Source: Pelagirhabdus alkalitolerans
GTDB taxonomy: Bacteria > Bacillota > Bacilli > Bacillales > Amphibacillaceae
DNA: 32,000 nucleotides
NCBI RefSeq assembly: GCF_900096905.1
Contig: NZ_FMYI01000012.1
Location: 15,180-47,179, forward strand
Direction of reading: 5' to 3'
Position 1 is the stretch's first letter; each line of letters opens with the position of its first letter. The notes below the pieces were generated by a model. The model did no database searches. It was not told the DNA's origin and worked only from the letters and a program-made list of their open reading frames with translations. Made by a program: the position numbers and the translations under genes. Shown here in pieces: positions 1 through 12,964 of the stretch.

Positions 1-1221
1 GATACAGCTGAAAAGACGCTGTTTAATATGAAAGACTTAGAAAAAAGCACTGGATTGAAACGGTCGTGTTTGAAGCACCCCAATGGCGAATCGATTACGA
101 TTGAATACACAGTTAATCAAATACGATCACAAAATAATGAAATGTTAGGCATCGTTTTTGTATTTCGTGATATTTCAGAACGAATAAAAAAAGAAGAAGA
201 AGTAACGTTTCTTAGCTTACGGGATCAATTGACGGGTCTTTATAATAGACGCTATTTCATTGAAATGATGAAAGAGTTAGATAGAAGCGATCAAATGCCG
301 ATTAGCATCATGATGATTGATGCTAATGGTTTGAAATTAATGAATGATGTATTCGGTCATAAGGCTGGAGATGAGCTTCTGCAAAAAATCGCTAGCTATT
401 TAACTCAGCATTCAAGAGAACACGATATAGCTTTTCGCGTTGGAGGCGATGAATTTGTTTTACTCCTACCGAAAACACCTCTTATTCAAGCTGATATGTT
501 AATGAAAAAAATTGATAAAAGCGTTAAGCAAGATAAAACGCATTTTCTTCCTCTTACGTTATCGATTGGTTTAGCGACTAAGAAAAATGAGGAAGATGAT
601 ATTTACCGAATCTATCGACAAGCTGAAGACCGTATGTATATTAAAAAGATGAGTGAGCGAACAGAGTTAAGACATGACATGATCGATAAGATTATCGATC
701 AATTACACGATCACATTCCAAATGAACGTGATCATGCGAATGAAGTAAGACGTTTATCAACAGATTTAGCTAAAAGGATCGGGATGTCTGAGGATCAACA
801 AAAGGAAATTGCTCAAATCGCTTGGTTTCATGACATTGGTAAAATTGTTTTATCTAAAGATTTATTGTTAAAATCGTCACCTCTAAATCGAGAGGAAGAG
901 CACCAACTGAAGCGCCATCCTGAAGCAGGATACAGCATATTAAGTGCTGTTAATCATTACGCGTCTTTTGCGGATCCAATTCTATCGCACCATGAAAAAT
1001 GGGATGGAAGCGGCTATCCAAAAGGATTAAATCAAGATCAGATCCCTTTATATGCAAGAATTATTGCCATTACAGAATCTTATGACCAAATGAGACGCGA
1101 CCAACCCTATCGAAAAGCTCTATCTTCAAAGGAAGCTAAACAAGTATTAATTGAGCAAAAAGGAAAGCAATTTGATCCTGAATTAGTGGATGAATTTATT
1201 CAACACGTTTTAACTAAATAA
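1..1221 (+). CDS. PAS(partial)-GGDEF-HD-GYP c-di-GMP turnover protein; 5' end probably cut by the window edge
   Basis: Frame 1 is open from nt 1, with no stop before the ATG at 28. The first residues look like the C-terminal part of a PAS domain (LGIVFVFRDISERIKKEEE). GGDEF signature is RVGGDEFVLLL, with an RxxD I-site (REHD) 5 residues upstream. HD-GYP signatures are WFHDIGK and HHEKWDGSGYPKGL. Confidence 0.85.
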   Translation, partial: DTAEKTLFNMKDLEKSTGLKRSCLKHPNGESITIEYTVNQIRSQNNEMLGIVFVFRDISERIKKEEEVTFLSLRDQLTGLYNRRYFIEMMKELDRSDQMPISIMMIDANGLKLMNDVFGHKAGDELLQKIASYLTQHSREHDIAFRVGGDEFVLLLPKTPLIQADMLMKKIDKSVKQDKTHFLPLTLSIGLATKKNEEDDIYRIYRQAEDRMYIKKMSERTELRHDMIDKIIDQLHDHIPNERDHANEVRRLSTDLAKRIGMSEDQQKEIAQIAWFHDIGKIVLSKDLLLKSSPLNREEEHQLKRHPEAGYSILSAVNHYASFADPILSHHEKWDGSGYPKGLNQDQIPLYARIIAITESYDQMRRDQPYRKALSSKEAKQVLIEQKGKQFDPELVDEFIQHVLTK

Positions 1222-1293
1222 ATAAAAGGTGAAATGAGTCTGGGACAAAACAAAAATGAATATCTTAAAACACGAACAATCCGATCAAAAGGT

Positions 1294-1425
1294 CACCGCA
1301 ATCTGAAATGGACTCCCTTTCTGCTCACACGGCCTCAGCTAACTTTAGAAGCAAAAATCGCTTCTAAAGTGGATCTTCAGCTCGTGCTTTTCCCGCAAGA
1401 GTCTCGTCCATTCCAGATTGCTGTG
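1294..1425. repeat. Long imperfect inverted repeat (about 130 nt extended hairpin); REP/MITE-like element or structured RNA
   Basis: The outer arms caccgcaatctgaaatggac (1294-1313) and gtccattccagattgctgtg (1406-1425) pair at 18 of 20 positions. The perfect inner hairpin is ctttagaagc (1343-1352), loop aaaaatc, gcttctaaag (1360-1369). The region is locally more GC-rich than its flanks. Confidence 0.5.
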
Positions 1426-1440
1426 AAATATGTAAACAAA

Positions 1441-1483
1441 TAGCCGGACAAAAAATAGTTAAAATACTATTTATGTCCGGCTA
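1441..1483 (+). terminator. Stem-loop downstream of the GGDEF/HD-GYP gene; possible terminator
   Basis: tagccggaca (1441-1450) pairs with tgtccggcta (1474-1483), with an inner aaatagt/actattt helix. The downstream tract is only moderately T-rich. Confidence 0.4.
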
Positions 1484-1546
1484 TTACATTGACTTATTTA
1501 CTTTTGTTTCAGACTCTTTTCTTTTTTTATAAAAAAGGGAAATCCT

Positions 1547-1575
1547 TTGTTTCAAGGCTCTAAATTAGCTATAAT
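1547..1575 (+). promoter_or_regulatory. SigmaA-type promoter candidate for the two-component operon
   Basis: TTGTTT (1547-1552), a 17-nt spacer, then TATAAT (1570-1575), about 35 nt upstream of the response-regulator start. Confidence 0.4.
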
Positions 1576-1611
1576 ATGTTTGAAATGAACCCAATAGGGA
1601 TGTGATGAAGT

Positions 1612-2283
1612 ATGCCAACTATTCTGGTCGTTGATGACGATGCACATATTCGTCAATTAATTCAATTGTATTTAACAAATGAGAAGTTCACAGTTATAGA
1701 AGCGAATGATGGTGAAGAGGCTTTAGATGTAATGGCTCAATCACCAGTAGATTTGGCGATTATTGACGTGATGATGCCTAAAGTAGATGGTGTTGAATTA
1801 ACAAAAGAAATAAAGCGCTATGATGCCATTCCAATCTTGATGGTAACGGCTAAAGGCGAGTCAGAAGATAAAGTAAAAGGATTTAATGCAGGAACAGATG
1901 ATTACTTAGTAAAACCATTTGATCCGATCGAATTAGTGTTACGTGTGAAGGCTTTACTGAAACGTTATAATGTAATGACAGACAAACAAAACACAATTAA
2001 AGACGTGACGATCGACCTCGAACGACTCATCGTTCAAAATGAAGAGATAACTCTAGAGCTAAAACGAAAAGAGTGTGAATTGCTCTTTGAATTATCCAAA
2101 GAACCAGGTCGAGTCTTTACAAGAGCTCAACTTGTTGATAAAATTTGGGGCTTCGATTATGAAGGAGATGAACGGACAGTCGATGTTCATATTAAACGAT
2201 TACGAGAAAAACTTATACCGTTTGATTCCATTCAAATTACAACGGTTAGAGGATTAGGTTATCGAATGGAGGCTGTCGATTAA
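1612..2283 (+). CDS. OmpR/PhoB-family response regulator, HssR-like
   Basis: Receiver domain (VVDDD, DLAIIDVMMP, TAKG, KPF) plus a winged-helix output domain (KIWGFDYEGDERTVDVHIKRLREKL, TVRGLGYR). The C-terminal part closely resembles staphylococcal HssR as I remember it. Confidence 0.9.
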   Translation: MPTILVVDDDAHIRQLIQLYLTNEKFTVIEANDGEEALDVMAQSPVDLAIIDVMMPKVDGVELTKEIKRYDAIPILMVTAKGESEDKVKGFNAGTDDYLVKPFDPIELVLRVKALLKRYNVMTDKQNTIKDVTIDLERLIVQNEEITLELKRKECELLFELSKEPGRVFTRAQLVDKIWGFDYEGDERTVDVHIKRLREKLIPFDSIQITTVRGLGYRMEAVD

Positions 2284-3630
2284 ATGCGCCGAAGTCTATA
2301 TTGGCAGTTTGTGACGACGTTTATCACGGGCGTCATTTTAAGTTTAGTTTTGTCGTATGGCATTACATCTATATTTTTTCAAAGTGAAGTGATCCATCAA
2401 GAGGAGATGGAAGATACGTCCCAGTACGTTGTTGAATTATTAGATATGGTGGATACAGATGACTTGCCTAGGTTATTAGATTTGTTGAATGATTTTGGTG
2501 TTGAGGCGGTCATATTGGATGAAACAGACGAGCCATATTTACCAAATATGAATACCGAGTTCATCACTGAAGAGATGGTTGATCAAATAAATGCGAATGA
2601 AACATCAGAGATTACAACGTTCACCCCCGGGAGACGTGATCTTGTTCGATACATCGGAACGCCAGTTGACTATGAAGGTGAACGGTTTACGTTATTTGTT
2701 AAAATGAATTTCGAAGATGAGTTTGCGGGATCTAGACGTCTTACATTAAACGCGCTTATCCTTGTTTTAATTATTGGTAGTGTATTTATTATTTTAGTAT
2801 CTCGCTATTTTGTGTCGAGTATTCGTTCAATAACAGATGCAGCAGAACAGCTTAAAATGGGAGATTTTAATGTCCAATTAAAAAGTGAGCGCGAAGATGA
2901 AGTCGGTCGATTAATTCGAAGCTTTAATCAAATGGCTGAATCACTTAAAAATATGGATGAAGTACGAAAAACGTTTGTTAGTAACGTTTCTCATGAAATT
3001 CAATCGCCCTTAACATCGATTAAAGGGTATGCTCGAGCACTCGTAGATGGTGTTGTCAAAAAGGAAGATGAGCACGATTATATGATGATCATCTATAAAG
3101 AAGCCGATCGATTATCTCGATTGTCTGATCACCTCTTACGAATGGCTTCGTTAGATTCAGACAAACATCCTGTAAAAAAAGCACCTTATCGATTAGATGA
3201 GCAAATTCGTCGAGTGATCTTATCAACTGAGATGCTTTGGCAAGAAAAAGACTTAGAAATTAAATTAGATTTGACAGATGATGTGATCGAAGCAGATCAG
3301 GATTTAATGGAACAAGTTTGGTTGAATTTAATTGTGAATGCGATCAAGTATAATCATGCAGATGGTGAGATTCATGTGTCCAATTACGAAGAGGACATAT
3401 ATAGGGTCGTTCGCGTTAGCGATAGGGGTATAGGAATTCCTGATGATTCAATCCCTTATTTGTTTGATCGCTTTTACCAAGTTGATCAATCACGGACAAA
3501 GACGCGTTCAGGAAACGGTCTAGGTTTATCTATTGTTCAGCGTATTGTTGCTCTACATGGAGGCTATATTGATGTCATCAGTGAAGAAGGTGTAGGAACG
3601 ACATTTTTTGTGTATTTACCCAAAAAATAA
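2284..3630 (+). CDS. Sensor histidine kinase (two TM segments, extracytoplasmic domain, HAMP, HisKA, HATPase_c)
   Basis: The ATG directly abuts the TAA of the regulator (TAAATG). H-box is VSHEIQSPLT, N-box LIVNAIKYN, G-boxes DRGIGIP and GNGLGLSIV. The two hydrophobic segments flank an acidic loop of about 125 aa. Confidence 0.9.
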   Translation: MRRSLYWQFVTTFITGVILSLVLSYGITSIFFQSEVIHQEEMEDTSQYVVELLDMVDTDDLPRLLDLLNDFGVEAVILDETDEPYLPNMNTEFITEEMVDQINANETSEITTFTPGRRDLVRYIGTPVDYEGERFTLFVKMNFEDEFAGSRRLTLNALILVLIIGSVFIILVSRYFVSSIRSITDAAEQLKMGDFNVQLKSEREDEVGRLIRSFNQMAESLKNMDEVRKTFVSNVSHEIQSPLTSIKGYARALVDGVVKKEDEHDYMMIIYKEADRLSRLSDHLLRMASLDSDKHPVKKAPYRLDEQIRRVILSTEMLWQEKDLEIKLDLTDDVIEADQDLMEQVWLNLIVNAIKYNHADGEIHVSNYEEDIYRVVRVSDRGIGIPDDSIPYLFDRFYQVDQSRTKTRSGNGLGLSIVQRIVALHGGYIDVISEEGVGTTFFVYLPKK

Positions 3631-3646
3631 TATAAAATTAGTGTTT

Positions 3647-3667
3647 AGTTCATATTCAGTTCATAAA
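3647..3667 (+). promoter_or_regulatory. Direct repeat with 11-bp periodicity; candidate OmpR-family (HssR-type) binding site
   Basis: GTTCATATT (3648-3656), CA, GTTCATAAA (3659-3667). A TATACT hexamer follows at 3675-3680. The repeat lies 17 nt after the kinase stop and 50 nt before the next coding start. Confidence 0.5.
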
Positions 3668-3716
3668 GTGGGTATATACTAACCTCAAGATCAATACATT
3701 GAGGTAGGTGACTACT

Positions 3717-3872
3717 GTGACTTATTATGACTCTAATTGGAGTCAAGCCCAAACAGATCATTACAACCAATTAACAAAAGAAAAATCAATTATGGAAAAC
3801 ATAGCATCCTCTTTGCAAGAAGAAGGAATCGATGCTACTGTAATAAAGAAAATCAAAATGCCTGAAAGGTAG
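3717..3872 (+). CDS. Candidate 51-aa small protein (below the ORF-track cutoff)
   Basis: GTG start 6 nt after AGGTG (3706-3710). It translates to V/MTYYDSNWSQAQTDHYNQLTKEKSIMENIASSLQEEGIDATVIKKIKMPER. Its TAG stop (3870-3872) lies 8 nt upstream of the ATG 3881 called here for the next gene and overlaps only the disfavoured alternative GTG start at 3872. I recognise no homology. Confidence 0.3.
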   Translation: MTYYDSNWSQAQTDHYNQLTKEKSIMENIASSLQEEGIDATVIKKIKMPER

Positions 3873-3880
3873 TGAAAAAC

Positions 3881-4567
3881 ATGTTTTTATTTCATCCAAT
3901 GGATTTCTTAATTTTCATTGCGTTCGGTTTAGCAATGTGGGCGCAATCTAAAGTGAAAAGTAATTTTCATAAATATGCGCGTGTCCAAGCGAATGCACAA
4001 GTGACAGGGTTACAAGTAGCTAGACGTATTCTTGATCAAAATGGCTTATACGATGTGACGATTGAACGATCAAAACGAGGAGATTTATCGGATCATTACG
4101 ATCCACGTTCGAAAACGGTTCGATTATCAGGACCGATTTACAGCGGTTCTTCCATTTCATCATTAGCAATAGCTGCCCATGAGGTGGGTCATGCGATCCA
4201 ACATGCTAAAGGTTATTCAATGCTTAAATTCAGATCTGCATTGTTCCCTGCAGCCAACCTTGGTTCAAGGATGGCACCACTTTTATTAATTTTAGGGATT
4301 ATGGCAGAGTTTAATCAGTTAATTGGCGTAGGAATTGGATTGTTCTCAGCAGCTGTGCTATTTCAAGTTGTCACGCTTCCTGTTGAATATGATGCAAGTA
4401 GACGTGCGAAGAATCAATTGATGGAGATGGGATTTGTCACTGCTAATGAGAAAAAGGGTATTAGTAATGTATTAAATGCGGCCGCTCTAACATATGTTGC
4501 AAGTACGTTAATTGCTGCTCTTCAACTCTTGAAATTTGTTATGATCTTTGCTGGTAGACGTGACTAA
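3881..4567 (+). CDS. YugP-type membrane zinc metallopeptidase (Zn_peptidase_2 family)
   Basis: HEVGHAIQH zinc motif, an N-terminal TM segment and C-terminal hydrophobic helices. The MFLFHPMD start resembles family N-termini. The ORF track starts at GTG 3872; I prefer ATG 3881 because of its spacing from AAAGG. Confidence 0.85.
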   Translation: MFLFHPMDFLIFIAFGLAMWAQSKVKSNFHKYARVQANAQVTGLQVARRILDQNGLYDVTIERSKRGDLSDHYDPRSKTVRLSGPIYSGSSISSLAIAAHEVGHAIQHAKGYSMLKFRSALFPAANLGSRMAPLLLILGIMAEFNQLIGVGIGLFSAAVLFQVVTLPVEYDASRRAKNQLMEMGFVTANEKKGISNVLNAAALTYVASTLIAALQLLKFVMIFAGRRD

Positions 4568-4583
4568 ATAAAAGGAGATCACT

Positions 4584-5999
4584 ATGTTCGGATTAAAGCT
4601 TAAAAGCCTAACAAAACGCATTTTGTTAGGCTATTTTTTTTACGTTGTTATAACAGGTGTGGTGATGTTTTGGTTACTTCAGCCAACCGAAGTAAAGGTA
4701 GGGTCAACGGATGATCTTTCTTTTCGTGAAACAGATGAAAAAGTGGCATCGATTGATGAAAGAGATGATGCGTTTAAAGTACGATTAGATTTAATAGAAG
4801 CGGCTGAAGAGTCACTTGTAATGAGTTATTATGCGATGCAAGGTGGCTATACCGTTGATTTATTTTATGATGCTATTTTAGAAGCAGCCGAACGCGGTGT
4901 TGACGTTCGGTTTATGATCGATGGTATTTTCCATAACATGCGCTTTCAAGATCGTCACATTGAACATATTTTTAATGAGCATCCTAACATTGAGCTTGCT
5001 TATTATGAGCGATTTTCTTTTTTGAAGCCGTGGTCATGGCACAATCGGTTACATGATAAATTTATGATTGCAGATGAGAAAAAAGCTTTGATTGGTGGTC
5101 GGAATATAGGTGATAAATATTTTGCAGATGATGGTGTAATGACAGTGTCTAATGATCGAGATCTGCTTATCATCAATCCAAACAATCGTGAACCAGTTAT
5201 TATTCGGGATATGCTAAATTATTTTGATTACGTATACGAGAGTGACTATGTTGAGGTTCAGTCAAATAGTCGGCTGGCTTCGATCAATGACCGTAGAGCT
5301 AAACGTTATAAAGATGATTTAAAGGAACGTACGCAACAATTAAAAAATGAGTATAACGATTTTTTTGAAGAAAGCATTCATTGGTCTGATGCTGCACGTC
5401 CTGTCAAACGGGCTGAATTTGTTCACAACTCGATTGATCGATTTTATAAACAACCTCATGTTCTTAGACGTCTGCTACTGCAAGCTGAAAAAGCGAACGA
5501 TTCATTAATGGTTCAAACCCCTTATTTAATTCCAACACGACCACTCAAAGAAAAAGTTGAAGCAATGAACATTGATCAGCTAAATAAAGCCGTTTTAACA
5601 AATAGCTTAAGTGCTACTTCAAATATAATGGCACACAGTGGTTACCGTAATCACCGTAAGAAACTTAAAAATTCAGATGTTACACTCTATGAATATCAAG
5701 GTCCTGACTCATCGTTGCATATGAAGACATGGCTTTTTGATCAAGATGTAGCGGCGGTCGGTTCGTTTAATGGTGATGCAAGGAGTACTTATTTAAATAC
5801 AGAGTCGATGTTAATCATCGAGAGTCCAGAGTTAGTAGCAGATATCCATGACTATAATCATGCGTCTTATCTTAGTAATAGTTTGACCGTTGATAATCGA
5901 GGGAAGAATGAGGTAAGAGAAGATGAAAGCCCTTTATCCAAAAAGGTAATGACATGGCTTATTCGTCCGATTGCAAGAGGGATTGCTTATTTACTCTAA
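4584..5999 (+). CDS. Membrane-anchored phospholipase D superfamily protein with two HKD motifs
   Basis: AAGGAG RBS and an N-terminal TM segment (ILLGYFFYVVITGVVMFWLL). First HKD motif is HDKFMIADEKKALIGGRNIGD; second is HMKTWLFDQDVAAVGSFNGD. Confidence 0.85.
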   Translation: MFGLKLKSLTKRILLGYFFYVVITGVVMFWLLQPTEVKVGSTDDLSFRETDEKVASIDERDDAFKVRLDLIEAAEESLVMSYYAMQGGYTVDLFYDAILEAAERGVDVRFMIDGIFHNMRFQDRHIEHIFNEHPNIELAYYERFSFLKPWSWHNRLHDKFMIADEKKALIGGRNIGDKYFADDGVMTVSNDRDLLIINPNNREPVIIRDMLNYFDYVYESDYVEVQSNSRLASINDRRAKRYKDDLKERTQQLKNEYNDFFEESIHWSDAARPVKRAEFVHNSIDRFYKQPHVLRRLLLQAEKANDSLMVQTPYLIPTRPLKEKVEAMNIDQLNKAVLTNSLSATSNIMAHSGYRNHRKKLKNSDVTLYEYQGPDSSLHMKTWLFDQDVAAVGSFNGDARSTYLNTESMLIIESPELVADIHDYNHASYLSNSLTVDNRGKNEVREDESPLSKKVMTWLIRPIARGIAYLL

Positions 6000-6023
6000 T
6001 AATTCCTGTTAGGATGTGAAAAC

Positions 6024-6689
6024 ATGCAGACACTGGAAGATATAAAACTAGCTTATGAAGAAGCCTTACTAAATGGGAAAACAAGAGAGGGCTATGAATT
6101 AATTCAAGAAGCGCTCAATGAAGGACAATCGTTAATTGATATTTATTTGATCATAGCTGAAGCGATGTATAGTATTGGTGACTTATGGGAAACCAATGAT
6201 ATTTCGATTGCGCAAGAACATGCGGCGACCGCTATTACACAGTTTGTTCTCACACAAATAAGTGCCGAATCCATCAAACACTATAGTCCACTAGATACAA
6301 AAGCCTTCATTTTTTCAATTGAGTCCAATACGCATTACTTAGGTATTCAAATGATTAAAAGTGTTTTTAATGTGTATGGTATTCAGACATTTGATTATGG
6401 TCCTAATGTTCCCAATACAGACATCGTAAATGAAATAAGTGAAAAACAACCACATTATGTTGCCTATTCTGTCTCAATGCCTGATCATATTGACAAAGCT
6501 AAACAGTTAAGCCAAATGATAAGAGAATGTCCGACGGGGACTTCACCGATGATTATTATAGGAGGGTATGCATTCGTAAAAGAGCCTCATTTGTTGGAAC
6601 AAGTCGATCACGATTATTATTTCCCTACTATTTTGGAATTAGAAGACTGGTTGAGAGAACAGACTAACATGATACCATCAAACACATAA
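6024..6689 (+). CDS. Stand-alone cobalamin-binding protein (B12-binding_2 helical bundle plus Rossmann B12-binding domain), CarH/AerR-like, with no DNA-binding domain
   Basis: W-x9-EH motif (DLWETNDISIAQEH) in the N-terminal helical part. A THYLG segment sits where (D/E)xHxxG occurs. IIIGGYAF is a GG motif late in the Rossmann fold. Length is 221 aa. Confidence 0.7.
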   Translation: MQTLEDIKLAYEEALLNGKTREGYELIQEALNEGQSLIDIYLIIAEAMYSIGDLWETNDISIAQEHAATAITQFVLTQISAESIKHYSPLDTKAFIFSIESNTHYLGIQMIKSVFNVYGIQTFDYGPNVPNTDIVNEISEKQPHYVAYSVSMPDHIDKAKQLSQMIRECPTGTSPMIIIGGYAFVKEPHLLEQVDHDYYFPTILELEDWLREQTNMIPSNT

Positions 6690-6709
6690 TCAACTTGGGG
6701 GCGACGAAG

Positions 6710-7633
6710 ATGCAAAACAATCGTGAATTAACAATGGAATCGATGCATCATTTATTTAATCAAGCACAACTATCATTGTTTCTAGTGAATCTTGATGGAT
6801 CCATTCTAAAGAAATATGGTTATGCACAGTTTCAGCTTGAGGCTGAATTAAACTCCATTTATCAAATTGTTGATAATCATTCGAAAAATCGATTAGAAAA
6901 AATATTGAAGGATGAGAAGAAAGAAGGAACGACAGATATTTATCTGTTAAGTTCAACGCACCCAGCTGCTTTTTTTCTAACGTATGTAAAAGAACAAGAT
7001 TTAGTCTGGCTTTTTATTCTACCGTATCCGCCAGAATATTCTCAAATGGTATCTAATATGCTTGATGCTAATGCAGAGTTGACTAAACTGTATGAGCAAA
7101 AAATTCAACTTGAATATGAGCTTAAACATCATATGAAAGAGCTAGAGAAATTAAGTATTACAGATCCTTTAACTGGTTTGTACAATCGTCAATATTTTTA
7201 TGATTATGTCAATGAGAAACTTGAGTCTAGAGATAGTTGGCAAATGTTATCGTTAGTGATGATTGACTTTAATGATTTCAAGAAGGTCAATGATCAATAT
7301 GGTCACAAAACGGGTGACTATTTATTAAAAGAGTTCGCTCACATTATACAATCACAATGTGACATGGCGTTTCGTTTTGGTGGCGATGAGTTTGTAGTGG
7401 TATCAGTTGATCTGTCGCACGATGTGATTAAAAAACGTCTTGATCATATAAATCGATTGTTTTCTCAAAAAACAGAAATTGTTTCATTGTCATACGGCAT
7501 TAGTTCTATTTCTAAGGATAAAGCCGGTCAGATTGGTACTAATCAAGATATTGATCATTATTTAAGATTAGCAGATCAAGCGATGTATCGTTATAAACAA
7601 GCATATAAAAATAACTCGAAAGAAATGGATTAA
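6710..7633 (+). CDS. Diguanylate cyclase (PAS-like N-terminal domain, coiled linker, GGDEF)
   Basis: LTGLYNRQYF, DFNDFKKVNDQYGH and RFGGDEFVVV. There is no RxxD I-site (SQCD occupies that position). The ORF track starts at TTG 6695; ATG 6710 has better spacing from GGGGG. Confidence 0.85.
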   Translation: MQNNRELTMESMHHLFNQAQLSLFLVNLDGSILKKYGYAQFQLEAELNSIYQIVDNHSKNRLEKILKDEKKEGTTDIYLLSSTHPAAFFLTYVKEQDLVWLFILPYPPEYSQMVSNMLDANAELTKLYEQKIQLEYELKHHMKELEKLSITDPLTGLYNRQYFYDYVNEKLESRDSWQMLSLVMIDFNDFKKVNDQYGHKTGDYLLKEFAHIIQSQCDMAFRFGGDEFVVVSVDLSHDVIKKRLDHINRLFSQKTEIVSLSYGISSISKDKAGQIGTNQDIDHYLRLADQAMYRYKQAYKNNSKEMD

Positions 7634-7654
7634 ATAATTTTCATGTGAAGCCTT

Positions 7655-7679
7655 TAAAATATTTTTCTAAAGCCGATAT
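7655..7679 (+). promoter_or_regulatory. SigmaD-type promoter candidate for flaG-fliD-fliS-fliT
   Basis: GCCGATAT (7672-7679) is a perfect match to the sigmaD -10 element. TAAA at 7655-7658 is a possible -35, but the 13-nt spacer is shorter than the roughly 15-nt consensus I recall. Confidence 0.5.
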
Positions 7680-7717
7680 AAGAACTAAATGGAGAATATA
7701 GAGGAGTTGGCAATGTT

Positions 7718-8101
7718 ATGGATGTAAACAACGTTATGTCTCAAGGAGCATTTTCAAGTCGGTCTACACAAGAGCGTTCAACTGTAGTACCAGATAGAAG
7801 TGCATCACATGTTCAACCAACGACCCAACCAACAAGAGAAGCAGAACAACATAGCCACTCAAGTGATTTAAATGATCGAAGAGCTGATATAGAAAGTATG
7901 GTTGATGGTCTTAATGAATTCTTAGAACCTGTTCGTACATCGATCAAATTTGAAATGCATGACAAACTTGAGCGTTACTATGTAAAAGTGGTCGATTCAC
8001 AAACAGAAGAACTTATTAGAGAAATTCCGCCTGAAGACATGTTGGATATGTATGCAGCAATGGCTGAATTTATGGGTTTTATTGTAGATGAAAAAATTTA
8101 A
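7718..8101 (+). CDS. flaG: Flagellar protein FlaG
   Basis: The C-terminal region (KFEMHDKLERYYVKVVDSQTEELIREIPPEDMLDM) is typical of FlaG, and the gene sits immediately upstream of fliD. Confidence 0.85.
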   Translation: MDVNNVMSQGAFSSRSTQERSTVVPDRSASHVQPTTQPTREAEQHSHSSDLNDRRADIESMVDGLNEFLEPVRTSIKFEMHDKLERYYVKVVDSQTEELIREIPPEDMLDMYAAMAEFMGFIVDEKI

Positions 8102-8116
8102 GCGAGGTGTTTTAAT

Positions 8117-9625
8117 ATGAGAATTGGCGGTATGGCCTCAGGTATGGATATTGACGGTATCATGGAAGACTTAATGGCAGCTGAACGATTGCCACTTGAT
8201 AAAATGGAACAAGATCGTACGAAAATTGAGTGGGAACAAGATGCCTATCGTGAAGTGAATGCTAAATTTGCAGACTTAGATCAAATGATGCTCGATATGC
8301 GTTTAAGTCGTAACTATAATTCGAAACAAGCAACCACATCAAATGATGCTATCTCAGCAACAGCAAATTCGTCTGCACCTGAAGGTAGTTTTGAACTATC
8401 CGTAGAAACCTTGGCATCGAATGCGGTGTATTCATCACAAGACGAAGATGGTAACGGAACTGGGATCTCAGTAGATAGCAATGATAAAATTGATCCTTCT
8501 AAACCAATTGCCGATCAGTTAGAAAAATTAGGAATTGATGATTTTAATGAAACAATAAAGTTTACTAGTTATCACGAAGGGGAGCCAGATGGAAAAGAGT
8601 ATGAAATTGAAATTTCTGATGAAGATTCTTTAAACGATGTGCTAACAAAAATTACCCGCGGTGATAATGGTGTGAGTGCTTTTTATGATGTGCAAACGGA
8701 TTCTGTTATTATGGAACGCACTGAGGCTGGTGCTTATAATGATGGAGATGAAATCGTATTTGAAGATAACTCCTTTTTTACTGATGTACTTAAATTAAAA
8801 GAATCAAGACCAGGTACTGATGCAGAGTTCACGTATAACGGTGTGGAATTGAGCTCAAAAACAAATTCAACAACACTAAATAACATTGAATATACGTTCA
8901 ACGATGTGACAGATGGTACATTTGTTAACGTAACAAATGATACAGAAGAAACCTTCGATATGATTATGGAGTTTGTCGATAAATATAATGATTTAGTTGA
9001 AGATGTTAATGGTCGATTACGCGAACCTTCTAATCGTGATTACCCCCCTTTAACTGAAGCTCAAAAGAATGATATGTCAGAGCGTGAGATTGAGTTATGG
9101 GAAGAACAAGCTCAAAGTGGATTATTACGGGGTGATTCTATTTTAAGCGGATCATTATCTCAAATGCGCCAAGCTTGGTCATCATCAGTTGATAATGATG
9201 GACCTTACTCACACTTTTCTGAGATTGGTATTATGACGACAGCTAATTATTTAGATGGTGGACGTTTACAGGTTGATGAAGATCAATTACGTGAAGCATT
9301 ATCAGAAGATGCTGATGGTGTTCATCGTCTATTTTCAAATAGTAGTGATGACGAGGGACGAGGTATTATTAATCGCCTGGATGACGTTGTTGATAATACA
9401 AGGTCACGTATTGATAGTCGTGCAGGACGCGCAACTCAACAGCCCCATCAGTACACGCTAGGTAGAGAGATGCGTAATATTGATAATCGAATGGAATCAT
9501 TCCAGCGTCGTTTGCAACAAACCGAAGATCGCTACTGGAATCAATTTAGCGCGATGGAACGCGCCATTTCTGAGATGAATAATCAATATAGCCAAATGAT
9601 GTCACAATTAGGTCAACCAATGTAG
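8117..9625 (+). CDS. fliD: Flagellar filament capping protein FliD
   Basis: N-terminus MRIGGMASGMDIDGIMEDLMAAERLPLDKM, a conserved C-terminal helical region (RYWNQFSAMERAISEMNNQ), and 502 aa in length. Confidence 0.92.
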   Translation: MRIGGMASGMDIDGIMEDLMAAERLPLDKMEQDRTKIEWEQDAYREVNAKFADLDQMMLDMRLSRNYNSKQATTSNDAISATANSSAPEGSFELSVETLASNAVYSSQDEDGNGTGISVDSNDKIDPSKPIADQLEKLGIDDFNETIKFTSYHEGEPDGKEYEIEISDEDSLNDVLTKITRGDNGVSAFYDVQTDSVIMERTEAGAYNDGDEIVFEDNSFFTDVLKLKESRPGTDAEFTYNGVELSSKTNSTTLNNIEYTFNDVTDGTFVNVTNDTEETFDMIMEFVDKYNDLVEDVNGRLREPSNRDYPPLTEAQKNDMSEREIELWEEQAQSGLLRGDSILSGSLSQMRQAWSSSVDNDGPYSHFSEIGIMTTANYLDGGRLQVDEDQLREALSEDADGVHRLFSNSSDDEGRGIINRLDDVVDNTRSRIDSRAGRATQQPHQYTLGREMRNIDNRMESFQRRLQQTEDRYWNQFSAMERAISEMNNQYSQMMSQLGQPM

Positions 9626-9659
9626 TTTGAATGGATAATGGCGAAAGGATGTTTTAAAG

Positions 9660-10058
9660 ATGGTTCAACAACACTATCAAGCTTATAAAAATAACTCAGT
9701 AAATACGGCATCACCAGCGGAATTAACGTTGATGTTATACAATGGATGTTTAAAATTTATAAAACATGCTAAAAAAGGGATTGAAAATAAAGATATTCAA
9801 ATGAAGAATACGAATATCCAAAAAGCTCAAAATATTATTAGCGAATTGATGGTGACATTAGATCAGGATGCTCCGATCGCAAAAGACATGATGCCTCTTT
9901 ATGATTATATTAATCGTCGCCTAATTGACGCGAATGTAAAAAATGATTTGACGATCTTGATGGAAGCATATGGCCTTGTTGAACAGTTCCGTGATACGTG
10001 GAAAGAAGTTGTGAAAAAAACGCGTATGCAAGAATATTCAGAAAGCGCGCGAGCTTAA
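9660..10058 (+). CDS. fliS: Flagellar export chaperone FliS
   Basis: YKNNSVNTASPAELTLMLYNGCLKFIK is a typical FliS N-terminus. Length is 132 aa and the gene follows fliD. Confidence 0.92.
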   Translation: MVQQHYQAYKNNSVNTASPAELTLMLYNGCLKFIKHAKKGIENKDIQMKNTNIQKAQNIISELMVTLDQDAPIAKDMMPLYDYINRRLIDANVKNDLTILMEAYGLVEQFRDTWKEVVKKTRMQEYSESARA

Positions 10059-10059
10059 T

Positions 10060-10413
10060 ATGCGTCCGTTAGATCAATTAAAAACAATAACGGATTCTTT
10101 GGAAAACCTTGTGAATAAACCTGTTTCTTCTAAAGATCGTGATATCGTGATTGAACAAATTCAGGATAAGTTAACCCAACGTCAAAAGGTAATCGATCAG
10201 TTAAAAACACCTCAAACTGATGATGACAAAAAGTTGGGGCAAGACATTTTAAAAAAAGATCGAGTAATTCAAGAAAAGGTTCAGGAGTTACTATTAGATG
10301 TCAAAAAAGATATGAATAAACATAAAAAACATAAAAACACATCAACTAAATATTTGAACCCTTACCAACATGTATCGGTAAAAGATGGATCTTATTGGGA
10401 TAAGAAAAAGTAA
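10060..10413 (+). CDS. fliT: FliT-like flagellar chaperone (called by position and composition)
   Basis: The ATG lies 1 nt after the fliS stop. The protein is 117 aa, helical, and rich in K/D/Q. Its position matches B. subtilis fliT, but sequence conservation in this family is low. Confidence 0.6.
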   Translation: MRPLDQLKTITDSLENLVNKPVSSKDRDIVIEQIQDKLTQRQKVIDQLKTPQTDDDKKLGQDILKKDRVIQEKVQELLLDVKKDMNKHKKHKNTSTKYLNPYQHVSVKDGSYWDKKK

Positions 10414-10415
10414 AC

Positions 10416-10450
10416 AAAAACACCGCGCTTTAAAAAAGCGTGGTGTTTTT
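10416..10450. terminator. Bidirectional intrinsic terminator between fliT and the convergent ABC ATPase gene
   Basis: aaaaacaccgcgctt / aagcgtggtgttttt stem, with an A-tract on one side and a T-tract on the other. Confidence 0.75.
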
Positions 10451-10454
10451 AAAT

Positions 10455-11201
10455 TTAAGCCTCATCATCCAATAGTTGAAGAAAGCTCTTCGTTTGTTGT
10501 TTTTCTGGGTGAACAAGCACTTTTTCAGGACTGCCTTCTTCAATAATATAACCATCATCCATAAATAACACTTTATCTGCAACACGTTTAGCAAAGTTCA
10601 TCTCATGTGTGACAATGATCATCGTTTGGCCTTCATTTGCTAGTTCTTCAATGACTTTTAGCACTTCTCGGACAAGTTGTGGATCAAGTGCTGAGGTAGG
10701 TTCGTCAAACAACATGACATCAGGTTCCATCATTAAAGCACGGGCAATCGCAACACGTTGTTGTTGCCCACCGGATAAAGCATCAGGGAATTTATCCAAA
10801 TGATCGATCATCCCAACTTTATCAAGTAGTGCTTCCCCTTTTTTGATAAGTGTTTCTTTGCTTTCTTTTTTCACGATAAGTGGCGCTTCAATTATATTTT
10901 CGATGACCGTTTTGTGTGGGAACAAGTGAAAGCCTTGAAAGACCATCCCAGAATATTGTCTAAGCTTTAATTTCTCTGTTTTTTTGAGGGGACGTTCGCT
11001 AAACACTTGAGTCGTATCTCCAATTGTGATCGTTCCACTGTTGGGTGTTTCAAGTAAATTTAAACATCTTAATAAGGTTGTTTTTCCGGAACCAGAAGCC
11101 CCGATTAATGCAACGACTTCCCCCTTTTTCACTGAGAAATCAATCGATTCTAAAACCGTTGTTTCATCAAACTTTTTATTTAAATTACTAATTTCAATCA
11201 T
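10455..11201 (-). CDS. Polar amino-acid ABC transporter, ATP-binding protein
   Basis: Walker [10 protein letters not shown], signature [15 protein letters not shown], Walker [22 protein letters not shown]. Resembles the GlnQ/TcyC type. Confidence 0.92.
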
Positions 11202-11220
11202 CTACTCACACCTCCTATTT

Positions 11221-11928
11221 TTAATTGGATATATAGCGATTGTAACGCGCTTCTAATCGTTGCTGGAAATAACCGATAATCACACAGACGATCCAATAAA
11301 TCAGTGCGGCTGCAATATACATTGTCATGCTTTCATACGTTCTACCTGCAACAATACGTGCTGAATATAAAAGTTCGTGAACAGTAATAACCGAAGCGAG
11401 TGATGTCCCTTTAATAATATCCATAAAAATACTAAAAGTAGGTGGTAGAGCAATACGTGTCGCTTGAGGAATAATAATGCGTCTCATCATTTGGAAGTAA
11501 TTCATTTGAAGAGATTCAGCAGCTTCCCATTGTCCTTTAGGCACGGACATAATCGCTGAACGGATAATTTCCGCATTATAGCCTGCAAAGTTCAAACTAA
11601 TCCCAACAATAGCCGCTACAATAGGGCTAGTGAATTGAATGCCAATGACAGGTAACCCGTAATATAAAATAAAGATGAAAACGAGTAAAGGCGTTCCACG
11701 CATAAATGATATATACGCGCGTGCAGGAAAACTTAATAGTTTGAATTTACTCATTCGTGCTATTCCAACAACCAGACCAAATAAAAGAGCGAAAAGCATG
11801 CTGAACAGTGAAATGATCATCGTTATTTGAAGCCCTTCAATCAATAAGGGTAAAGAATCAAGCGCAAGCTCAGGATTAAATAAATGTTCCCAGTGAATTT
11901 GGTTAAACCAATCAAACAAATCGATCAC
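11221..11928 (-). CDS. Polar amino-acid ABC transporter permease (His/Glu/Gln/Arg/opine family)
   Basis: Multiple TM segments and an EAA-like loop (EAAESLQMNYFQMMRRIIIPQA). The start is uncertain: GTG 11928 sits 1 nt after GAAGGG, so TTG 11919 is a plausible alternative. Confidence 0.88.
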   Translation of the reverse strand: MIDLFDWFNQIHWEHLFNPELALDSLPLLIEGLQITMIISLFSMLFALLFGLVVGIARMSKFKLLSFPARAYISFMRGTPLLVFIFILYYGLPVIGIQFTSPIVAAIVGISLNFAGYNAEIIRSAIMSVPKGQWEAAESLQMNYFQMMRRIIIPQATRIALPPTFSIFMDIIKGTSLASVITVHELLYSARIVAGRTYESMTMYIAAALIYWIVCVIIGYFQQRLEARYNRYISN

Positions 11929-12005
11929 ACCCTTCTAAAACAGAATAAAAACTCGACTCATACTAATTTTAAGAATTAGCATGTTTATCTTTCATGCGTA
12001 AAATA

Positions 12006-12041
12006 AAAGGTGATCAATGTATATTACATTGAAACACCTTT
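12006..12041 (-). terminator. Intercistronic hairpin plus U-tract between the binding-protein and permease genes (partial terminator or stabiliser)
   Basis: aaaggtg-a-tcaatgta, loop tat, tacattga-aa-caccttt. On the minus strand it is followed by ttattttac. Confidence 0.5.
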
Positions 12042-12055
12042 ATTTTATTGACTAT

Positions 12056-12964
12056 TTAAAAATCAAATTCAACAACATCGTCTGAATCAATCGGTTCAGA
12101 TGCATCGGCACCTAGAAATTCTTCAGATAGCTCGGCTACTGTACCATCTTCACGTAAAGCGTTAATCGCAACTGACAGTTGTTCAGCTAGTGCGTCATTT
12201 CCTTTTAAAACAGGAATAGCACTTGTTGTTGGGTGATATTTAACTTGATCAGCAACAACTAAGTTATCATCACCGAAATCTTCGATAATTTGAGCAAGAA
12301 CTAAACGGTCATTCAAGTAAGCATCTTGATTACCGTTTAAAATATCACGCAGAATAGCTTCTGTTCCACCATCGTATGCTACACCATCTGCTCCGACATA
12401 TTCACTGAAACGAGCATAATTACTTGTAAGTGATCCAAGTGCAACAGGAACATCTTCAAGATCATATGCATCGTCAAATTGATCAACATCGTCTTCACGT
12501 ACGATAATTGAGCCGTATGAGAATTTATATGGATCAGTAAAAGTAAATGTCTCTAGACGTTCTTCAGTAATAGCGAAATCATTAACAGCTAAATCAATTT
12601 GTCCGTTTCTTAGCGCTGGTAAAATCCCATCAAAATCCATTGTTTCAAATTCAACTTCTAAATCTAAATAATCAGCAATTTCACGTACAAGTTCTACATC
12701 GAAACCTGTTAATTCGTTCTCATCATTAAAGTAAGTGACAGGTGAATACGTACCAGATGTTCCGACAACGAGTGTTCCTTCTTCCTCAATATCGCTCCAT
12801 GAGGAATCTGTACTTTCATCTTCGATTGTTTCATCTTCTGTTTCCTCTGTTTGATCTGTATCTGCATCAGTATCAGCAGGTGATTCATCATTATCTAGTG
12901 TGCACCCAATGACACCAATTAATAGAATACTCATAAATAAAAATAAAGATAGCCATTTTTTCAT
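12056..12964 (-). CDS. Amino-acid ABC transporter substrate-binding lipoprotein with a long acidic linker
   Basis: Signal peptide with lipobox LLIGVIGC, followed by a D/E/T-rich tract of about 40 aa. The body is SBP_bac_3-like (GTSGTYSPVTYFNDENELTGFDVEL). GGGGGAGGAA RBS. Confidence 0.87.
   Translation of the reverse strand: MKKWLSLFLFMSILLIGVIGCTLDNDESPADTDADTDQTEETEDETIEDESTDSSWSDIEEEGTLVVGTSGTYSPVTYFNDENELTGFDVELVREIADYLDLEVEFETMDFDGILPALRNGQIDLAVNDFAITEERLETFTFTDPYKFSYGSIIVREDDVDQFDDAYDLEDVPVALGSLTSNYARFSEYVGADGVAYDGGTEAILRDILNGNQDAYLNDRLVLAQIIEDFGDDNLVVADQVKYHPTTSAIPVLKGNDALAEQLSVAINALREDGTVAELSEEFLGADASEPIDSDDVVEFDF

Follow-up and report, generated by a model that had tools for sequence, protein, structure and literature searches.

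A direct-repeat operator of the HssR/HitR/YclJ-PieR-like type probably links a two-component system to a small orphan gene and yugP

In Staphylococcus aureus, Bacillus anthracis, and Listeria, the direct repeat in the hrt promoter (P_hrt) is the HssR site (PMC3968170; PMC6305404). The repeat is not confined to one regulator. The repeat used by B. anthracis HitR departs from that of HssR at four positions, and there is cross-regulation between the two systems; as HitRS shows, systems of this kind respond to envelope-active compounds as well as to heme (PMC3968170). A similar direct repeat is found in the YclJ/PieR site, with the consensus TTCAT-AG-TTTGT-TCATATTT, and PieRS of Listeria monocytogenes controls the envelope protein-quality genes prsA1, prsA2, and possibly htrA (PMC9545042). 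As for the peptidase that will concern us below, YugP of B. subtilis, found in the inner spore membrane, is a putative membrane metalloprotease (PMC13393411).

How does the present locus compare with these systems? The window, by which we mean the whole 32-kb stretch of DNA that was analyzed, carries a two-component operon, a direct repeat, and a short gene followed by yugP in the following arrangement.

1547..1575, + strand: candidate constitutive sigma-A promoter, TTGTTT-17 nt-TATAAT (sequence reading; no HssR-type box)
1612..2283, + strand: OmpR/PhoB-family response regulator, 223 aa, phospho-acceptor Asp52 (Response_reg and Trans_reg_C)
2284..3630, + strand: sensor histidine kinase, 448 aa, with HAMP, HisKA (His237), and HATPase_c (Pfam, hydropathy)
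3648..3667, + strand: putative direct-repeat operator GTTCATATT-CA-GTTCATAAA (sequence reading; conserved in orthologous loci; type and geometry of S. aureus P_hrt)
3675..3680, + strand: −10 hexamer TATACT (TAnnnT at offset 7 in 34/34 family boxes; TATACT or TATAAT in Amphibacillus)
3717..3872, + strand: small hydrophilic orphan ORF, 51 aa (gene call; GTG start 7 nt after a GAGGTAGGTGA ribosome-binding site; abuts yugP)
3881..4567, + strand: YugP-family membrane zinc metallopeptidase, 228 aa (PF04298, HEVGH motif at residues 100-104, hydropathy)

The kinase gene stops with TAA at 3628-3630, and the box begins after a hairpin-free gap of 17 nt. Half-site 1, GTTCATATT, occupies 3648-3656, the CA spacer 3657-3658, and half-site 2, GTTCATAAA, 3659-3667, so that the half-sites recur with a period of 11 bp; TATACT lies 7 nt 3' of the box. 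Direct reading confirms the initial annotation in the position of the repeat, its 11-bp spacing, its distance from the kinase stop, and the placement of the hexamer. The same annotation had described the HssR box as a direct repeat with a 2-nt spacer, and this proved right when read on S. aureus hrt promoter DNA: the hrtB-hssR intergenic region (L085) contains GTTCATATT-GA-GTTCATATT followed after 7 nt by TATACT. This locus was located with an HssR query, a 100% match to a staphylococcal cluster of 1383 members; a full-text literature search for GTTCATATT returned unrelated papers only. The window element shares with P_hrt the half-site type, the length of the spacer, the distance to the −10, and the hexamer itself, and against GTTCATATT-N2-GTTCATATT it shows two mismatches, which fall on the final two positions. 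The surroundings are different, however. The S. aureus operator is divergent from the regulator gene, whereas the window operator lies downstream of the kinase gene, and the target in S. aureus is the MacB-type exporter HrtBA, whereas here it is the small ORF and YugP.

OmpR/PhoB-type activators bind over the −35 region of the promoters that depend on them. No usable −35 was found at workable spacing from TATACT in the window promoter, and such a promoter should therefore depend on an activator. Transcription would start near A3687/A3688, and the box would span about −39 to −20, as a class-II-type activator site. Could the repeat instead be a chance occurrence or a relic that regulates nothing, so that expression of the small ORF and yugP comes only from read-through of the two-component operon? 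Indeed, the kinase stop is not separated from the small ORF by a terminator, and repeats are frequent in AT-rich intergenic DNA. Yet the 32-kb scan for GTTCATATTNNGTTCATATT at ≤2 mismatches produced a single match, the box at 3648, against a shuffle expectation of 0.02 (2/100 shuffles gave one match) and of 0.15 at ≤3 mismatches, and the 7-nt spacing to TAnnnT is fixed throughout the family boxes. Conservation is a stronger argument against chance than these shuffle figures.

The order regulator-kinase-box-small ORF (49-54 aa)-yugP recurs in Amphibacillus cookii, A. xylanus, Amphibacillus sp. MSJ-3, A. indicireducens, and an Amphibacillus-like metagenomic contig (L167). In the four named Amphibacillus genomes the box follows the kinase gene directly and is either invariant or altered by one substitution; it is present as well in L167, in Halolactibacillus miurensis (L168), and in Ornithinibacillus (L169). 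When five Amphibacillus-type intergenic regions are aligned, AGTTCA(T/C)ATTCAGTTCATAA, the −10 hexamer, and the ribosome-binding site stand out as conserved blocks in diverged surroundings, and about 20 nt plus the −10 hexamer remain invariant at 46-66% kinase protein identity while the flanks diverge. In Halolactibacillus miurensis the kinase gene is followed by GTTCATATTCAGTTCACATT, 7 nt, TATACT, a 50-aa ORF, yugP, and a terminator. In Ornithinibacillus salinisoli a perfect GTTCATATTCAGTTCATATT, again with TATACT after 7 nt, lies about 300 nt before yugP, and the linkage of box and yugP is kept there despite an insertion of about 1 kb after the kinase gene. At every one of these loci the box precedes yugP, with the orphan ORF (49-54 aa) between them in all but Ornithinibacillus. 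On the evidence of these alignments we take the box to be under selection, and we consider it most improbable that it is an accident or a relic. In MSJ-3 an insert of about 190 nt separates the box promoter from the small ORF (L005 4990-5240) and forms a long 5' leader that is absent in the other species.

The link between box and yugP is specific. Neither the box nor a two-component system of this family was found near any of 80 other metagenomic YugP loci (0/80; proteins 43-56% identical), which shows that the link is not general to yugP, and the idea that yugP is generally preceded by the box was rejected on this count. Farther afield, a Clostridiaceae metagenomic genome has the order box, yugP, regulator, kinase, and Caldalkalibacillus, whose kinase is 47% identical, has the box before the regulator gene and no yugP. 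Within the clade formed by Amphibacillus, Halolactibacillus, and Ornithinibacillus, the conserved output of the system thus appears, from gene order, to be yugP.

What kind of two-component system is encoded beside the box? Both proteins have the features of the OmpR/PhoB type: the Pfam scores of the regulator (110.3 and 84.4 bits) and of the kinase (55.4, 53.1, and 98.5 bits) all exceed their cut-offs, and Asp52 and His237 are conserved. Hydropathy places hydrophobic segments of the kinase at about residues 5-32 and 151-181, on either side of an outside domain of about 120 aa, and S. aureus HssS is built alike, with two membrane segments, an outside domain, HAMP, HisKA, and an ATPase domain. 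The regulator is 65-74% identical to the regulators of its nearest relatives and the kinase 55-66% identical to the Amphibacillus kinases. Against S. aureus the figures fall to 44% over the full length for HssR and 34% for HssS, the latter for residues 166-446 only, that is, the cytoplasmic part (BLASTP); in the sensor half of the kinase BLASTP detects no similarity to HssS.

One explanation of the locus is a true HssRS heme sensor with a rewired regulon, in which yugP and the other downstream genes have taken the place of the HrtAB heme exporter. The box has the sequence and geometry of the S. aureus HssR box, the kinase has the architecture of HssS, UniRef labels several relatives 'Heme sensor protein HssS', and in the relatives an HrtBA-like FtsX + ABC pair persists within a few kb on the downstream side. 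The sensor itself tells against this explanation. HssS residues Phe25, Arg94, Phe128, and Arg163 are needed for heme binding and activation, and a single substitution of either Arg94 or Phe128 cripples activation in S. aureus (PMC11237747). In MAFFT and hhalign alignments these residues face Tyr25, Asn90, Gly116 or a gap, and Arg151, so that two of the four positions are retained and Arg94 and Phe128 are not conserved; because the alignment of the outside domain is of low confidence (25% identity overall), it does not prove the loss of the heme pocket. In a neighbor-joining tree of 77 regulator-plus-kinase pairs, which carries no support values and does not include B. anthracis HssRS/HitRS or B. 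subtilis YclJK, staphylococcal HssRS forms the most distant branch, and the sister group of the Amphibacillus clade consists of systems from alkaliphilic Bacillaceae and Paenibacillus that control their own exporter operon by autoregulation. The UniRef labels look like automatic naming, many non-heme targets use the same box, and the HrtBA-like pair of the relatives is boxless and sits behind terminators. Amphibacillus is described as lacking cytochromes and catalase, which also counts against heme as the signal; a literature search on Amphibacillus heme biology yielded nothing usable. We therefore regard a rewired heme sensor as unlikely. Of the features that define HssRS-HrtBA, the operator repeat is present in the window, but the HrtB permease/HrtA ATPase operon is not, two of the four heme-pocket residues appear to be missing, and the comparison of sequences does not support HssRS orthology.

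The repeat cannot decide the matter in favor of HssRS, for it is common to a wider family. The kinase alignment was used to scan representative genomes; in the loci so obtained we looked for the box and determined which genes follow it. Dozens of related two-component systems, with regulators 47-68% identical to that of the window, proved to have the same repeat beside them, and the occurrence of TAnnnT exactly 7 nt after every box collected indicates that the box-N7-(−10) architecture is common to the whole group. The first gene after the box may encode a fused MacB-type ABC exporter, HlyD + AcrB-type RND pumps, an ABC-2 exporter, a YhgE-like membrane protein, an MMPL protein, a YkcB-type glycosyltransferase, an alpha/beta hydrolase, or the regulator itself. 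The YkcB-type gene, which is a YclJ target in B. subtilis, stands behind a family box in Paenibacillus (L026). We conclude that the box is a shared operator type of a large HssR/HitR/YclJ-PieR-like radiation and is not diagnostic of HssR; it follows that automatic HssS/HssR names or motif matches alone are no evidence of heme sensing. One operator and one regulator family thus serve varied envelope outputs, among them RND, MacB, ABC-2, and MMPL transporters, the YkcB glycosyltransferase, and, at the present locus, a peptidase.

The window system belongs to this HssR/HitR/YclJ-PieR-like Firmicute group, whose members have diversified in sensor domain and in targets, and it resembles its described members to different degrees. 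HitRS of B. anthracis is a paralogue-type system acting on a closely related direct repeat (PMC3968170). Compared by arrangement only, HitRS drives an ABC transporter in front of its two-component genes and so autoregulates, whereas the window has neither such a box nor such a transporter. PieRS, with its envelope protein-quality targets, sets a precedent for a protease-type output. Nevertheless, the window proteins score far below the equivalog cut-offs of NCBIfam for PieR (NF041209; 161 bits against 450) and PieS (NF041210; 178 against 850) and are thus not PieRS orthologues, and unlike B. subtilis YclJK the window system has no adjacent yclHI-type transporter.

These comparisons separate the parts of what had been proposed at the outset. 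The identification of the system with HssRS is not supported by the alignments or by the position of staphylococcal HssRS in the tree. As for the resemblance of the regulator to HssR in the DNA-binding domain, the conserved recognition-helix region is general to the OmpR family. Likewise, of the suggestion that the locus represents a rewired heme- or envelope-stress regulon, the heme part is left without support, because the system is probably not an HssRS orthologue and the box is not HssR-specific, whereas an envelope-stress-type regulon is plausible. A membrane or envelope cue is a more likely signal than heme.

An operator type shared among paralogues, together with the cross-recognition of repeats by HssR and HitR in B. 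anthracis (PMC3968170), implies that a regulator encoded elsewhere could contribute or even be the true binder. On such an account the box is functional but used mainly by a paralogous regulator, and its position behind the kinase gene is historical. We find this improbable, since box and system have stayed adjacent across three genera despite a rearranged locus, and in the loci retrieved from the Amphibacillus/Halolactibacillus/Ornithinibacillus clade no further box lies ahead of the regulator gene or at any other place. The proposal in the initial annotation that the box is the output site of the adjacent two-component system is very probably correct on the same ground of retained adjacency. 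In the window, too, no HssR-type box lies upstream of the regulator gene, the box at 3648 being the only one in the 32 kb. A two-component operon with a promoter-like site of its own (1547..1575) and no box is not arranged for autoregulation, and we infer that the operon is not autoregulated; read-through from it may give basal expression of the small ORF and yugP.

We propose that the box is an activator-dependent operator of the adjacent two-component system that drives the small ORF and YugP, a reading that we hold to be likely from the sequence, geometry, conservation, and gene linkage described above. First, a membrane or envelope signal would act on the kinase (His237), and the regulator would become phosphorylated at Asp52. 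Second, the phosphorylated regulator would bind the two half-sites, 11 bp apart, as a head-to-tail dimer. Since the box would take the place of a −35, the bound regulator would recruit sigma-A RNA polymerase to TATACT, and transcription from near 3687 would yield an mRNA for the orphan protein (51 aa) and for YugP, the membrane zinc peptidase. A hairpin at 4605-4641 would stop most transcripts, and read-through would reach the genes for a phospholipase D-like (PLD) protein and, in this genome only, for a B12-binding protein and a GGDEF cyclase.

The most likely start of the small ORF is GTG 3717, which stands 7 nt after GAGGTAGGTGA, as in the homologues. Every Amphibacillus locus has such a homologue (49-54 aa) at the corresponding position, and Halolactibacillus has a distant one; the homologues are 27-41% identical and share the motif KS(I/L/V)M...L...G(I/V)(D/N)A..V.KK. 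In protein libraries of 5.8 billion and 1.8 billion entries the relatives are of Amphibacillus type only, and the small ORF has no match in Pfam or NCBIfam. An AlphaFold model shows two helices at a mean pLDDT of 74 and a pTM of 0.41, values that mark the model of so small a protein as uncertain. The stop codon of the small ORF adjoins or overlaps the start of yugP, an arrangement suggestive of translational coupling.

The membership of YugP in its family is clear: it matches PF04298 with 284.7 bits against a cut-off of 27, over profile positions 3-217 of 218, HEVGH is invariant in the YugP alignment, and hydropathy indicates about four hydrophobic segments in the window protein. It shares this clear PF04298 membership and the HExxH motif with B. 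subtilis YugP; the window yugP differs in being linked to the box and in being preceded by an orphan small ORF that is restricted to the Amphibacillus/Halolactibacillus lineage. Members of the family are widespread membrane zinc peptidases for which we know of no established function. The kind of element described here is well known, but its conserved output, YugP together with an orphan small protein, appears to be new: no report of it, or of YugP under two-component control, was found in the searchable literature. A dedicated two-component promoter before yugP in Amphibacillus, Halolactibacillus, and Ornithinibacillus offers a route to learning when YugP is needed. A bolder and rather unlikely extension is that the system, the 51-aa protein, and YugP constitute a dedicated module for stress-induced proteolysis, in which the small protein might be an adaptor, inhibitor, or feedback element of YugP and PLD might be gated by an embedded terminator that translation initiation could override. 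If true, this would give the uncharacterized YugP family its first regulatory and functional context.

How far does the transcript extend beyond yugP? The features that bear on this question are the following.

4584..5999, + strand: PLD/cardiolipin-synthase-like protein, 471 aa, with N-terminal membrane anchor (two PLDc_2 stretches)
4605..4641, + strand: terminator-like 12-bp hairpin and T-run (inside the first 20 PLD codons, about 40 nt after the yugP stop)
6024-6689, + strand: B12-binding protein (Pfam)
6695/6710-7633, + strand: GGDEF cyclase (Pfam)

The hairpin has the features of an intrinsic terminator: a G+C-containing 12-bp stem (−12.7 to −15.2 kcal/mol), a run of eight T directly after it, and conservation. 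Its nucleotides are nearly identical in four species in which the PLD proteins are only 47-50% identical, with equivalents at about 10336-10375 in L002, 6126-6165 in L005, and 9350-9390 in L007. At invariant residues, identical codons are used at 8/9 positions in the hairpin as opposed to 38/139 elsewhere in the PLD gene (Fisher p = 4e-4), and both substitutions in the hairpin preserve G-U pairs. The hairpin may accordingly be a coding-embedded terminator or attenuator that can be modulated by translation initiation. A PLD start downstream of the hairpin was considered and rejected, since no later start is conserved, whereas the N-terminal membrane segment encoded across the hairpin is.

The PLD protein scores below threshold against cardiolipin synthase models. 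Its gene is present in L002, L005, L007, and L167 and absent in A. xylanus and Halolactibacillus, which have unrelated terminators at the hairpin's place, and from this distribution PLD seems to be a facultative member of the cluster. The conserved hairpin and the facultative PLD gene together suggest that the small ORF and yugP form the core transcript, with PLD as an attenuated extension. In the window the B12-binding gene follows the PLD gene after 24 nt and the GGDEF gene follows after a further gap of 5 nt. The B12-binding + GGDEF pair is absent from the other Amphibacillus loci, and in Halolactibacillus it stands behind yugP after a terminator and a 250-nt gap; the two genes probably lie outside the conserved regulon. 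The list of downstream genes drawn up at first (small ORF, YugP, PLD, B12-binding, and GGDEF) is hence right in content, but the conserved output comprises only the small ORF and yugP. An Rfam scan of 1200-8200 returned no credible RNA family.

The recurrence of the B12-binding + GGDEF pairing in Halolactibacillus hints at a cobalamin- or light-linked cyclase. We note that c-di-GMP genes flank the two-component/yugP cluster on both sides, with a PAS-GGDEF, HD-GYP-like region at 28-1221 and the GGDEF gene at 6695-7633, near the flagellar late genes. Upstream of the two-component promoter, right after a 69-aa ORF (1234-1443), there is a long hairpin, GCCGGAC...GTCCGGC (1443-1481), with no run of T behind it. 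Transcripts may end or be processed at this hairpin, which would set the upstream GGDEF/HD-GYP gene (28-1221) apart from the two-component operon.

Is an HrtAB exporter encoded elsewhere in the neighborhood? The absence of hrtAB genes behind the box, remarked upon from the beginning, extends to the 32-kb window, in which no HrtAB-type pair was found. The ABC genes at 10455-12964 belong to an amino-acid importer, and the other weak ABC-ATPase similarity, at about 21583, looks ftsE-like from its position. The relatives do possess an FtsX protein (about 364 aa) and an ABC ATPase (about 227 aa) next to flaG, 30% identical to HrtB and 47% to HrtA, respectively. A box of its own for this pair was sought and rejected, none being present at ≤4 mismatches in L168 or by eye in A. 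cookii (L002). The B12-binding + GGDEF pair and the FtsX + ABC pair are ancestral neighbors of the two-component/yugP cluster just upstream of flaG (7472-11073 in Halolactibacillus miurensis, L168; 12028-13802 in A. cookii, L002), none with a box, and have undergone differential loss among lineages; in the window it is the FtsX + ABC pair that has been lost.

The remainder of the window holds flaG-fliD-fliS-fliT, hpf, and secA in an arrangement typical of Bacillaceae. A sigma-D-type −10, GCCGATAT, occupies 7672-7679, some 40 nt ahead of flaG, and is preceded at a distance of 13 nt by TAAA; the same octamer, GCCGATAT, precedes flaG in A. xylanus (L004, about 10450). This element is probably a flagellar late-gene promoter, and with it the upstream cluster would come to its end. 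In A. xylanus the two-component system linked to yugP is directly preceded by a second, BceRS/BceAB-like module (L004 2663-7110) made up of a regulator, a short kinase, an ABC ATPase, and a 631-aa FtsX permease. Finally, a gene for a RelA_SpoT-type small alarmone synthetase also recurs beside this clade of two-component systems: it follows yugP in Ornithinibacillus (L169 8441-9190) and the kinase gene in Caldalkalibacillus (L170 6752-7168).
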